Below are positions 12,078-16,710 of a stretch of 64,000 bases of DNA, one piece after another. Origin of the DNA: a virus; IMG/VR virus record IMGVR_UViG_3300047678_000094, positions 1 to 64,000 of that record; one strand, 5' to 3'. The number at the start of each line of letters is the position of its first letter. The stretch's first letter is position 1. The position numbers and the translations under genes are program-made. Under the pieces are notes generated by a model, which saw only the letters and a program-made list of their open reading frames with translations, did no database searches and was not told the DNA's origin.

Positions 12078-12107
12078 AAAAAGGGAGCTTCGCGGCTCCC
12101 TTTTTTT
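12078..12107. terminator. bidirectional intrinsic terminator
   Basis: AAAAA-GGGAGC-TTCGCG-GCTCCC-TTTTTTT between convergent genes. Confidence 0.85.
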
Positions 12108-13779
12108 ATCCTTGCAATGAGAATTGTTCAGCAGATCGTAGCCAATTATTACCATCCGGCGGAGGAACAAACGCTGTCTCTGTAGGAGGCTTTTGACCGC
12201 CGGAAGCTTGAATAACGGTGTTGTTATTTTGTTGTACCGGTTTAGTTGACTGTGGTGCTGGTACCGGGCGACTAGCAGCAGCAAGATTGCGAGCACGATC
12301 AGCTTCAAGAGCAGCTCGCAGCTCTTCGACTGACACATTTGCTTTATTTCCGACAGCACCCTTATCAGCATATGTTTTACCTGTTCTTGGATCAGGTAAC
12401 CCACGCCATTCTTTGGCGGCATCAATCATTGCTGCCATGATGTCATTTGATTCCCCTGACAGATATGCGGATAGAGCTGGTCGTTTAGAGCCAGCCAAGT
12501 ACTCTTTAAAGATACGCTCTTGTAGTTTCTCGTCAAACAATTCTTTACCTGTTAGACCCATTTTTTCTTTGGCTTCTTTCAGTGTACTTGGAATGATCTG
12601 ATATTTACCAACAGCGAACAACTGCTTAGCATTCTGACGAGACATAACTTGATCCAGCGTCATCCTAGTAAGACCGATAGGTCCTTTGATGATAGCACTC
12701 GGTTTCTGTGGTTGGTTGTATGCGTTGTAACCAGCTGGCCCAGATTCAGCCTTACTGATTAAACTCGAGAACGATGATGCTGTCGTTGGTGCAGCTGCTA
12801 ATGCTGATGGAGCATTAGACATTGAACTGATTGGTTTTGGAACTTCAGCTGCCTTTGCTGCAGAAGTTGGTGGTGTTGTTGCTGGCGCAGGTGGTAGCAC
12901 AGGAGTTACCGGAGACTCTTTGTCTTTTTCTTTGTCTCCACCCCAGAGAGAATCCCACCAGTTACCGATATCCTTTGATGTTTTGTTCCACCAGTTACCG
13001 ATGTCGCTGTTCGTCTTAGTCCACCAGTTACCAACATCCTTTACCGTTGAGTCCCAAAGTTTTCCAGCGTCATTGACGAGATTACCAACTGTATCTGTGA
13101 ATGCTTTGGTTGCATCACCAATAGCTTTAGCGATAGGCTTCAGGTTTGTCACAAAAATCATAGCGGCTGTCTTCAGCAAGAATCCAAATAGATTTCCACC
13201 TTTTTCTTTAGCCATTTCTTTTAAGCCACCAAGACCTGGCGCTTCTTGATTCACAGCTTCCGCGTCTTGCTCACGAGCAGCGTTAGCACCTTGTTGTTGA
13301 ATCGCTAAGATTTTCTTCAGCGTGTCATCAATAGAACCAAGAAATTCGTTACTAACCGCACAACATTTGCTTGTTGGATCGTTGTCATTAGCGTGTTCTG
13401 TGTTCTGTTTAATCTGCCTAAGTAATTCAACTGATTGATTGCAGCATGAATCTTTCCCGTTTGAGGCGGCGTAGGCATTCTGCCCATTAGACATCTTCAG
13501 ATTAGAGTTCTGGTTTCTACCAGAACTCTGGAATATGTTTGATTTCTTTTGTGAGACGTCACCTTTAGATTTCCCAGTCTTACGAAGAACACCAGGAACA
13601 GTTCCAGACGGTGCTGTTGTGGCTCCCTTTACTTTCTTAGAAACCAAAGAGATTGCTTTGTCTTCTAAGAATTTTGAACCAATTGATTTCCCGGTGCGGC
13701 TTGCTACTGCACGTGTCGCAGCGCCTCTTACTGCTCCGCTCGCTGCAACTCTACCTACTGCTAATAAAAGAGGAATCAT
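12106..13779 (-). CDS. tape-measure/baseplate-hub-like protein with C-terminal lysozyme-like domain
   Basis: 11-aa-period GNWW repeats; ES..GYNAYN...AVGKYQIIPSTL...EW glycoside-hydrolase motif; position after gp26/gp51. Confidence 0.65.
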   Translation of the reverse strand: MIPLLLAVGRVAASGAVRGAATRAVASRTGKSIGSKFLEDKAISLVSKKVKGATTAPSGTVPGVLRKTGKSKGDVSQKKSNIFQSSGRNQNSNLKMSNGQNAYAASNGKDSCCNQSVELLRQIKQNTEHANDNDPTSKCCAVSNEFLGSIDDTLKKILAIQQQGANAAREQDAEAVNQEAPGLGGLKEMAKEKGGNLFGFLLKTAAMIFVTNLKPIAKAIGDATKAFTDTVGNLVNDAGKLWDSTVKDVGNWWTKTNSDIGNWWNKTSKDIGNWWDSLWGGDKEKDKESPVTPVLPPAPATTPPTSAAKAAEVPKPISSMSNAPSALAAAPTTASSFSSLISKAESGPAGYNAYNQPQKPSAIIKGPIGLTRMTLDQVMSRQNAKQLFAVGKYQIIPSTLKEAKEKMGLTGKELFDEKLQERIFKEYLAGSKRPALSAYLSGESNDIMAAMIDAAKEWRGLPDPRTGKTYADKGAVGNKANVSVEELRAALEADRARNLAAASRPVPAPQSTKPVQQNNNTVIQASGGQKPPTETAFVPPPDGNNWLRSAEQFSLQG

Positions 13780-13964
13780 CTATTATGTTCCATTGCTTTC
13801 TTTTTTTCTTCTAGATGCTGTATCAACATATCAACATATATGTCACGTTCGAATGGGAATAAATTTTCAATGTCATATATTGAGTATTTATGGTGTTGAA
13901 CTAGAGAGAATATCAGACTGTAGTAACTAGCTAGGCTGGTGTGACTCAGCCCAATGTAAAAAAA
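13776..13964 (-). CDS. gp51: baseplate hub assembly protein reading frame with no canonical start; probably reached by -1 frameshift from gp26
   Basis: Hand translation LSHTSLASYYSLIFSLVQHHKYSIYDIENLFPFERDIYVDMLIQHLEEKK matches the short gp51 of T4-like phages. Its stop overlaps the next ATG. Confidence 0.8.
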   Translation of the reverse strand, partial: FFYIGLSHTSLASYYSLIFSLVQHHKYSIYDIENLFPFERDIYVDMLIQHLEEKKKAMEHNR

Positions 13965-14656
13965 TCGTCCAAGCTGCTTAGTACAATCTGGCGCTCCGTT
14001 CCTTTACTGTTTTTGTAATTGATGACGTGCTCCATTTTTGGTGCATTCGCAAAGAATGTCTTAATTTTCTCGAGTGTCTTAGATGGAAGCGTGTCGATGA
14101 ACTCGGATAGTTCTTTGTCTGATTGCTCTTTGATGTCATATACAGTCTCACCATCAAAGATCTCAGTGATACAATTCTTCACGTAGAACGTCAGTAGGTC
14201 TACCTCATCAGCAAAATCCTCAAGCTGATCAATAGTAGAACCATCACCATGCTTAACCATGATTCCTACTGTGTCGTTGATCATGATTTTGTTACTGACT
14301 TTTTTCTTTGGCTTGGTTATTTTGATGTCAGCAATGTCAATCTTGAATTTGTATTCTTTGCCATCTTCATTGTCGATATACTCAAGACTAATGACGTTGT
14401 TGACCGAGATTCCACGTAGTTGTAGAAATAGATATTCGATGTCTACGATTTGTAGACTATCAACATCAAGCCCATCAACGGCGCAGTTGTTGATGACTTG
14501 CTTAACAGCCTTAAGTGTCTCCTTCTTACTCTTGGCTGATTGAGCCATTAGAAGAATCTTTTCTTCCTTCACAAGGAATGGACGAAAACGAACAACTTTA
14601 TCTGTAGATGGAATTGTGAATTCTGATACTGGGAATTCAATTTTTGGTAGTGCCAT
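13946..14656 (-). CDS. gp26: baseplate hub subunit/assembly chaperone
   Basis: MALPKI, RPFLVKEEKILLMA, DIEYLFLQLRG.SV and C-terminal DFF motifs. Confidence 0.92.
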   Translation of the reverse strand: MALPKIEFPVSEFTIPSTDKVVRFRPFLVKEEKILLMAQSAKSKKETLKAVKQVINNCAVDGLDVDSLQIVDIEYLFLQLRGISVNNVISLEYIDNEDGKEYKFKIDIADIKITKPKKKVSNKIMINDTVGIMVKHGDGSTIDQLEDFADEVDLLTFYVKNCITEIFDGETVYDIKEQSDKELSEFIDTLPSKTLEKIKTFFANAPKMEHVINYKNSKGTERQIVLSSLDDFFTLG

Positions 14657-15628: not shown

Positions 15629-16222
15629 TTATCCTCTGATTATACGTTTGCTGTTTGCCCAAACAAACTGTTTAGACTCCTTCTTGAAGCGTTCAGTTGG
15701 AAGGAACAATGCTATATCCCATTCTTGTGGGGAGATGTACATGAATTTTGAACGCATGTGGTGACTAAGGTAACGTTTAATACAAGGTTCAAAAAATGGA
15801 ATTTTAGAAGCCTTTTTCAGCAGTTGATAGTTCATCTGAAGTTTGGTTGTCTCGTCATACTTGTCGTTGTTGGCGTATTCGTATAGCCCATCCATCAACT
15901 TTGCTCTTAATTGGGGTGGTAGATAGTGCATGTTTAATCCGAGAAACCCACCTTGGGCCTTTTCAAATGGAAACACGAGAGGAAAGGTGTCGAAGTATGG
16001 TAGATCTTTGCCTGTTTTTGGATCATAGAAAAACATATACATTGACCCAAGAATCGGCTGTGATGAAAGTCTTGTTGGATCTCCCTTGAAGAAGCTTTTC
16101 TCATTGATTGATTTAATCTTAGCAGCGGTATTTCTGTACCATTCGCGTGATCTCTTAGTCTCAGCTGGCACCTTACCAGCCTGAAGACCCTTTTTGATCA
16201 TGTCGTCAAAGAGTGTTGCCAT
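15629..16222 (-). CDS. gp2: DNA end protector protein
   Basis: MYMFFYDPK...LPYFDTFPL...GLNMHYLP motifs. Confidence 0.93.
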   Translation of the reverse strand: MATLFDDMIKKGLQAGKVPAETKRSREWYRNTAAKIKSINEKSFFKGDPTRLSSQPILGSMYMFFYDPKTGKDLPYFDTFPLVFPFEKAQGGFLGLNMHYLPPQLRAKLMDGLYEYANNDKYDETTKLQMNYQLLKKASKIPFFEPCIKRYLSHHMRSKFMYISPQEWDIALFLPTERFKKESKQFVWANSKRIIRG

Positions 16223-16257: not shown

Positions 16258-16710
16258 TCAGAACTTTATTCCTAGATCTCGCGCACCCATTTTTACGAAT
16301 TTCCACCCCTTCATCGCGCAATAACGCTCCGCTGCAGCCCACTTCGCGCTGTTTATTCCCCATGTATATACTTCTTTGATGTACTGCTTGGTTGGACGTC
16401 CACCCTTAGTGTTTCTCGGCTTTGGCTCAACCATCTGCGACTCAGGTTTCACTTCAATAAGCACTTCTTCTATGGATCCATTGGGTGTGCGTTTCTTGAC
16501 CCAAAAGTCAGGGAAGTACCTGTGTTTTCTGTTGTCGATTGGTGATATGTAATGTATGATGATTTCTTCTGAACTCCATTCCAAAATATTGGGTTGGTTG
16601 TCTAAATACATCATTAGTTTTAGCTCCCAACCGCTTCTGTATATCACATTGGTCGGGTCGCCTTTGTACTTGTTTGGATTCTTTGGTTGGAACTTACCTT
16701 GATACGCCAT
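16258..16710 (-). CDS. gp4: head completion nuclease
   Basis: PKNPNKYKGD, YRSGWE, HRYFPDF, IEVKP and NSAKW motifs. Confidence 0.93.
   Translation of the reverse strand: MAYQGKFQPKNPNKYKGDPTNVIYRSGWELKLMMYLDNQPNILEWSSEEIIIHYISPIDNRKHRYFPDFWVKKRTPNGSIEEVLIEVKPESQMVEPKPRNTKGGRPTKQYIKEVYTWGINSAKWAAAERYCAMKGWKFVKMGARDLGIKF

Follow-up and report, generated by a model that had tools for sequence, protein, structure and literature searches.

How is a gp51-like reading frame expressed when it has no usable start codon of its own? The question is posed by the minus strand of a 64,000-nucleotide stretch of DNA from an uncultured T4-like phage (positions 1 to 64,000 of IMG/VR record IMGVR_UViG_3300047678_000094, a 97-kb virus record that is ~57% complete; hereafter the window). 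Here the gene for the counterpart of T4 gp26 ends in a run of seven T's, and a frame resembling the C-terminal part of T4 gp51 lies open in the -1 frame across that end. A first-pass annotation had proposed that a programmed -1 frameshift fuses the two upstream of a tape-measure-like gene, as in the G/GT tail assembly chaperones of phage lambda. From a comparison of this junction with those of related phages we conclude that gp26 and the -1-frame gp51 domain are very probably joined by programmed -1 frameshifting on the T-run heptamer.

Anatomy and conservation of the gp26-gp51 junction

On the minus strand the 3' end of the gp26 gene reads GAC GAT TTT TTT ACA TTG GGC TGA (stop TGA at 13948-13946), with the seven T's in exact X XXY YYZ phase with the gp26 frame (Table 1). 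The -1 frame is open from stop to stop over 75 codons (14003..13776). Translated from the heptamer it gives FFYIGLSHTSLASYYSLIFSLVQHHKYSIYDIENLFPFERDIYVDMLIQHLEEKKKAMEHNR followed by a stop, a peptide of 62 residues that begins FFYIGLSHTSL, ends HNR and matches phrog_634 'baseplate hub assembly catalyst' (gp51) at E = 8e-25. The 236-residue product of the gp26 frame scores 176 bits against PF12322, where the gathering cut-off is 24.5, and it covers positions 5-234 of the 282 in phrog_150 (E = 2e-55); the -1 peptide falls on positions 231-278 of the same profile, abutting the end of the gp26 coverage. The earliest ATG, GTG or TTG of the -1 frame is codon 45 of 62, which leaves 17 codons, and the stop of the frame overlaps, as ATGA, the ATG (13779-13777) of an open reading frame of 557 amino acids (aa). 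A gp26-51 fusion is predicted to be 293 aa long (233 + 60), with the junction ...LSSLDDFF-YIGLSH.... The first-pass description of the site, namely a phased heptamer at the gp26 end, a gp51 homologue in the -1 frame, no start codon before its last 17 codons and a stop overlapping the next gene's ATG, holds in the sequence on each point.

A heptamer of this kind is not unusual in itself: the window contains 29 TTTTTTY compared with 39.6 expected from shuffles, so its significance comes only from comparison with relatives. Searching IMG/VR with a gp26 alignment gave 80 loci at 33-65% identity, 79 of which reach far enough downstream. Together with seven cultured phages (P-HM2, S-CAM4, the pelagiphages Mosig and HTVC008M, the vibriophage ValKK3, the Stenotrophomonas phage DLP_6 and S-CRM01), these yielded 85 distinct junctions, whose gp26 proteins are just 27-65% identical and form 15 clusters at 50% identity. 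In 85/85 the -1 frame of gp26 encodes a gp51-like domain, and in 85/85 T TTT TTY/A stands in phase exactly where the tblastn homology starts (TTTTTTC in 57, TTTTTTT in 26 and TTTTTTA in 2). The same junction occurs in five more isolates (Sinorhizobium phiM12, Acidovorax ACP17, S-PM2, Methylophilales phage Melnitz-3 and Aeromonas phage Ah1). More broadly, a tblastn search with the 62 residues returned 545 phage records, and in most of them the match runs into the annotated end of gp26. The first-pass annotation had staked its proposal on TTTTTT[TC] and the -1 phase being conserved across such junctions; both are kept throughout, apart from the two junctions with TTTTTTA.

Two synonymous sites in the heptamer are invariant. 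The codon preceding Phe-Phe ends in T in all 85 junctions, against a family background of 61% T in the same genes, and the residue that it encodes varies (D in 38, S in 29, N in 16 and A in 2). The first Phe codon is TTT in every junction (background 70%). Even if just the 15 clusters are counted, the chance of both sites being fixed is about 0.42^15 = 3e-6. Beyond Phe-Phe, the 0-frame tail consists of 0-8 unconserved codons.

These comparisons bear directly on whether the arrangement is an artefact or a product of decay, that is, a homopolymer assembly error concealing a true in-frame fusion, or an unexpressed gp51 remnant. Homopolymer runs are error-prone. The sequencing runs in which the stretch was found are from moss metagenomes, with no RNA run among them, and the sequences compared at the site itself are contigs. 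One of them, a 21.7-kb Logan contig, agrees with the window without differences and has the same 7-T length, but the moss-metagenome run from which it comes is probably the window's own source, so the agreement is not independent and lends weak support. The -1 arrangement, however, is identical in 85 distinct junctions and in 12 independently sequenced isolates. The gp51 domain was found in frame 0 in none of the 85, and most relatives carry TTTTTTC, which speaks against the first-pass concern that an eighth A in the reads would turn the locus into a simple fusion. The -1 frame is also open and conserved at the protein level among relatives (E down to 1e-28), and genomes with one PF12322 gene contain no other gp51. 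The comparative data effectively refute artefact or decay, which we consider extremely improbable.

One of the runs covers just small, diverged parts of the window. A second contig from the same moss-metagenome runs, 43 kb long, matches only positions 13794-13830, where the gp51 frame ends in a Lys-rich stretch; the alignment has 4 gaps, and the contig probably derives from a related phage in the same sample.

The length of the run also bears on a transcriptional route to the same fusion, in which RNA polymerase would slip on the T run and leave an extra U in some transcripts. One inserted mRNA base reaches the same -1 frame, and the window's run of seven T's might seem to invite it. Appreciable transcriptional slippage in bacteria usually needs runs of ~8-9, however; six T's are short by that measure, and 57 of the 85 relatives have just six, followed by C. 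Strict X XXY YYZ phase is needed by tandem tRNA slippage only, a point that is not decisive since Phe-Phe coding also fixes the phase. We judge polymerase slippage to be very unlikely.

Initiation, stimulators and the proposed mechanism

A different possibility is that the gp51 frame is translated alone as a free peptide of ~55-60 residues. It would start at ATT 13955 or CTG 13949, the two sites for independent initiation considered in the first-pass annotation, or arise by termination-reinitiation at the gp26 stop, and the T run would merely follow from coding Phe-Phe. The position of a start is not conserved: among relatives the first ATG, GTG or TTG of the -1 frame falls anywhere between codons 3 and 45, and the one in the window would leave 17 of the 62 residues. 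In 27 of the 85 relatives, a canonical start does lie 3-6 codons past the heptamer, which would permit coupled re-initiation there; it sometimes overlaps the gp26 stop, as with the TAATG of ValKK3 and S-CRM01, and starts of this kind are in use in the annotation of several database records. At the equivalent of ATT 13955, 12 relatives have GTG, ATG or TTG. Yet the homology begins at the heptamer and not at any start codon, and initiation has no need of two synonymous heptamer sites that are invariant in 85/85 junctions. Phages with a separate gene 51 retain Phe-Phe without the T run, and in T4 the gp51 C-terminal domain forms one polypeptide with a PF12322 domain. Taken together, these observations make a free peptide unlikely.

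The search for stimulators, together with the starts close behind the heptamer in 27 relatives, yields evidence that weighs against our interpretation. RNAalifold predicts no conserved pair downstream over the 85 anchored junctions. In the window, the downstream fold has a minimum free energy of -12.5 kcal/mol (z = -1.24 versus shuffles), and no Shine-Dalgarno (SD)-like motif lies upstream of the heptamer, a lack that also counts against independent initiation at this site. A hairpin register found in many cyanophage loci (columns 14-19 with 33-38) was tried as a candidate and rejected, being 50% paired and no better than slid controls.

Some loci nevertheless stand out from their surroundings. 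The downstream stability of the window falls within the lowest 4% of the 36-nucleotide windows of its locus, and 28% of loci are in the lowest 5% of their own, an enrichment in a subset. Hairpins with a 5-8-nucleotide spacer are present in several lineages, in differing registers, so lineage-specific stimulators are possible. Upstream, an SD-like GGAG/GAGG/AGGA 4-mer lies 5-19 nucleotides ahead of the heptamer in 42% of loci, L003:2482-2496 and L087:2482-2496 among them, compared with 8.7% of background windows. This 4-mer cannot be separated from a conserved Glu/Lys-Gly motif: it might act as a dnaX-like stimulator, or merely reflect the codons of that motif.

Because of the anatomy of the site and its conservation, we favour tandem slippage of tRNA-Phe. 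Most ribosomes translating gp26 would terminate at its TGA and release the 236-aa protein, while a fraction would shift by one base in the 5' direction on U UUU UUU, with re-pairing of the two tRNA-Phe, from UUU to UUU in the P site and likewise in the A site. The slipped ribosomes would read 60 further codons in the -1 frame and produce the 293-aa gp26-51, joined as DDFF-YIGLSH. The start-less 'gp51' would then be the C-terminal extension of a long form and not a gene of its own, and the equivalents of the short and long forms in T4 would be gp26 and gp51, both termed 'hub assembly chaperones'. Slippage itself, its efficiency, a requirement for both forms and the partners of each are inferred.

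Table 1. Coordinates of the gp26-gp51 junction and of the surrounding late-operon features in the window
Feature	Position	Strand	Evidence or remark
gp4 head completion	16710..16258	-	Late operon of T4-like phage in window
gp2 DNA end protector	16222..15629	-	Same late operon as gp26
Tail-tube-fold protein, gp54-type baseplate-tail tube initiator, 318 aa	14666..15622	-	PF23849 Phage_TTP_2 E = 4e-8; phrog_45 'tail tube' E = 8e-31
gp26, 0-frame product, 236 aa, T4 gp26 counterpart	13946..14656	-	PF12322 'T4_baseplate' E = 1e-51
Slippery heptamer T TTT TTT	13958..13964	-	X XXY YYZ phase (GA-T TTT TTT); proposed -1 tandem slip site
-1 frame extension, gp51-type C-terminal domain, 60 codons	13776..13958	-	TAC 13958 to AGA 13779, stop TGA 13778-13776
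Possible downstream RNA structure, weak, not conserved	13912..13955	-	GGGCTG 13952-13947 with CAGCCT 13938-13933, 5-nucleotide spacer
557-aa gene, candidate tape measure or hub protein, lysozyme-like C-terminal part	12106..13779	-	Weak profile signals

One-gene and two-gene phages of the T4 superfamily

T4 encodes gp26 and gp51 as two proteins, and their relation to the window pair can be read from the domains that they share. One PF12322 gene was found in each of the window's record, P-HM2, Mosig, ValKK3 and DLP_6, and two in T4. T4 gp26 (208 aa) is PF12322 only. In T4 gp51 (249 aa), residues 1-201 match the whole PF12322 profile and the C-terminal part matches phrog_634; the protein covers positions 13-280 of phrog_150. 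The two are paralogous (BLASTP E = 2e-6). We then built a hidden Markov model (HMM) of 295 positions from the conceptual fusion proteins of all loci and searched it against both T4 proteins. T4 gp51 aligns as a single segment spanning the junction (its residues 15-244 on model positions 23-279), where the consensus reads dFFrialshnsLenyyktn, and T4 gp26 aligns to positions 11-236, stopping just past Phe-Phe. Because T4 gp51 is collinear across the junction and T4 gp26 ends there, the short product would correspond to T4 gp26, and the 293-aa product would have the architecture of T4 gp51.

The heptamer and the -1 gp51 frame co-occur without exception among the phages sampled. We examined eight two-gene phages with a separate, full-length gene 51 (T4, HX01, QL01, Konradin, WSPA, the RB49-like FL15, PspYZU05 and AS-gz), in which gene 51 is divergently transcribed. 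None of the eight has an in-phase heptamer at the homologous site, and no gp51-like -1 frame was found in HX01, QL01, Konradin, WSPA, FL15, PspYZU05 or AS-gz. Those that retain Phe-Phe mostly encode it as TTC TTT; T4 gp26, for example, ends ...GLKEFFELL, encoded GAG TTC TTT.

In PspYZU05, the end of gp26 reads GAA TTT TTT AAA, with six T's preceded by A and a closed -1 frame. This run may be a relic of a slippery run or a convergence towards one.

On the other side of the divide is Ah1 (MG250483.1), an Aeh1-type member of the Straboviridae that has no separate gene 51 adjoining gene 26. Its single gene 26 ends GAT TTT TTC GAC TGA and is followed in the -1 frame by a gp51-like tail (...TPFERAIY..., L101:1070-1300).

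Parts of this pattern have been described before. Cyanophage and marine vibriophage gp51 were found to lack the first ~200 residues while keeping C-terminal similarity, cyanophage gp51 was put at ~20% of normal length, and gp51 was reported to be 'missing only in Aeh1' (Sullivan et al. 2010, PMC3037559). This short gp51 is the same object as the window's -1 frame, and no mechanism was offered for it; on our interpretation, gp26 provides the absent ~200 residues by way of the frameshift. Frameshifting would account both for the short cyanophage gp51 and for the apparent absence of gp51 in Aeh1, the latter explained by the heptamer and -1 gp51 tail of Ah1. We found no published gp26-gp51 frameshift in the literature searched, a search to which subscription journals were mostly closed, so an earlier description may exist.

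None of the 12 single-gene isolate records examined carries a joined coding sequence (CDS); they have a truncated 30-60-aa gp51 or none instead. If our interpretation is right, hundreds of records in this state should carry a joined CDS.

Among individual records, ACP17 (L091:1190-1370) and S-CAM4 (L002:2500-2695) have no gp51 annotated, though the full -1 domain is present in both. In P-HM2 (L001:2501-2695), a 30-aa gp51 remnant is annotated from an internal ATG, again with the full -1 domain present.

Overall, the sequence comparisons indicate that most of the T4 superfamily uses a -1 frameshift here, and that T4 itself has a separate gene for each product. They support a new, lineage-wide case of the known tail-chaperone class of -1 frameshifts, linked evolutionarily to T4 gp26/gp51.

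Relation to the tail assembly chaperones of lambda and T4

In lambda, the G part of the chaperone pair binds the tape measure and the T part the tube protein, a balanced ratio of the two forms is required and neither is in the virion; the corresponding pair of myoviruses is P2 E/E+E'. The first-pass annotation had taken gp26 and gp26-51 as the G/GT equivalent of this lineage. The comparison covered the fold of gp26 and the genes on either side of it.

The AlphaFold2 model of gp26 (predicted local distance difference test score 84.9) was compared with 48,161 PDB representatives. For residues 1-94, the best four matches were 3fgx (Z 8.0), 2ob9 (Z 7.2), 3klu (YqbN; Z 7.1) and 5ir0 (Z 5.4), and the fifth-best reached Z 4.8. 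2ob9 is the HK97 tail assembly chaperone (TAC; root-mean-square deviation 4.1 over 84 aligned residues), and 5ir0 was called the TAC of the satellite PLE1 in a 2026 paper (PMC12987554). In the model, the N-terminal ~90 residues of gp26 resemble HK97-type TACs. A profile search of PDB sequences with gp26 gave only chance-level matches.

Upstream, Mosig, HTVC008M and ValKK3 carry a 'baseplate tail tube initiator' annotation at the position homologous to the 318-aa gene. The downstream gene is harder to place. Searched against Pfam, the 557-aa product gave no match. Among PHROGs it reaches phrog_167 'tape measure' at just E = 3e-4, compared with E = 1e-37 for phrog_30077, a family of unknown function, and BLASTP gave no significant similarity to T4 gp29, the HTVC008M tape measure or the Mosig 655-aa protein. 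Atlas leads point to lysozyme, SLT and VgrG3-C families, with scores below 0.9. A tape measure, annotated or supported by PHROG matches, lies one gene further downstream in phiM12 and HTVC008M. The gene is a candidate tape measure, hub lysozyme or both. The 'tape-measure-like' label of the first-pass annotation is weakly supported, by the phrog_167 match, and T4 gp29 and the pelagiphage tape measures gave no significant similarity.

The 557-aa protein also has three DIGNWW-type repeats in its middle part, and its C-terminal part is common to phrog_30077 and phrog_37890 (unknown function).

Several of these results limit the equivalence with G/GT. The fold matches at Z 7-8 lie in a range that may reflect a common arrangement, and Foldseek of the gp26 model against the PDB gave no match at E <= 0.001. 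In addition, gp26 is about twice the typical size of G and carries an extra domain (residues ~95-236), and a tape measure is weakly supported as the identity of the 557-aa gene. The equivalence proposed in the first-pass annotation is supported in part, by the predicted short and long products, by a -1 heptamer at the end of the short frame, by a tube-like gene upstream and, more tentatively, by the HK97-TAC-like fold modelled for the N-terminal ~90 residues; the downstream tape measure is its weak part.

The question matters beyond this locus. The -1 frameshift of tail chaperone genes is among the most conserved recoding events in phages, and a 2016 review gives the G-T frameshift as conserved 'except T4' (Atkins et al., PMC5009743). 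T4 gp26 and gp51 are both listed as just 'hub assembly chaperone', the role of gp51 being given as unknown; gp51 is required, yet absent from the T4 particle (Leiman et al. 2010, PMC3004832). We lean, with moderate confidence, towards the view that the whole T4 superfamily (cyanophages, pelagiphages, KVP40-type and Aeh1-type vibrio and aeromonas phages, and rhizobial and other 'far-T4' phages) conforms to the lambda G/GT rule, its ancestor having had one gene with a U UUU UUY frameshift that the T-even lineage swapped for gene duplication. T4 gp26 would then represent the short form, and gp51 a long form made in a single frame. If so, the textbook exception disappears, and the 'catalytic' T4 gp51 and gp26 gain a role as tape-measure/tube initiation chaperones, a testable hypothesis for both proteins. 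The superfamily would also offer a natural experiment in which frameshifting and gene duplication can be compared as means of fixing the ratio between a pair of protein forms.

Compared with T4, the window pair shares PF12322 in both forms, a short form that ends after Phe-Phe and a long form, predicted for the window, that runs past it into the same C-terminal domain as the window's -1 frame. It differs in that T4 has two separate, divergently transcribed paralogous genes without a slippery site, whereas the window has one gene whose end is overlapped by the -1 frame. Genes 27, 28 and 29 come after the T4 genes, whereas the window's extension leads directly into the 557-aa gene. Compared with lambda gpG/gpGT and the conserved -1 frameshift of such genes (Levin 1993; Xu, Hendrix and Duda 2004, as cited in Atkins et al. 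2016, PMC5009743), gp26/gp51 have no sequence similarity to the G/T families and use U UUU UUY where lambda has G GGA AAG. What the two systems would have in common is a short and a C-terminally extended product of one gene, with an in-phase X XXY YYZ near its 3' end; a place after a tube-fold gene, equivalent to that of G behind the tube gene V, and before a large tail gene; chaperone products that stay out of the virion (on the T4 side, gp51); and an HK97-TAC-like fold predicted for the first ~90 residues. Position, short/long logic and this fold support, without proving, that the short/long pair belongs to the family and is the T4-superfamily counterpart of lambda G/GT, working as G/GT does.

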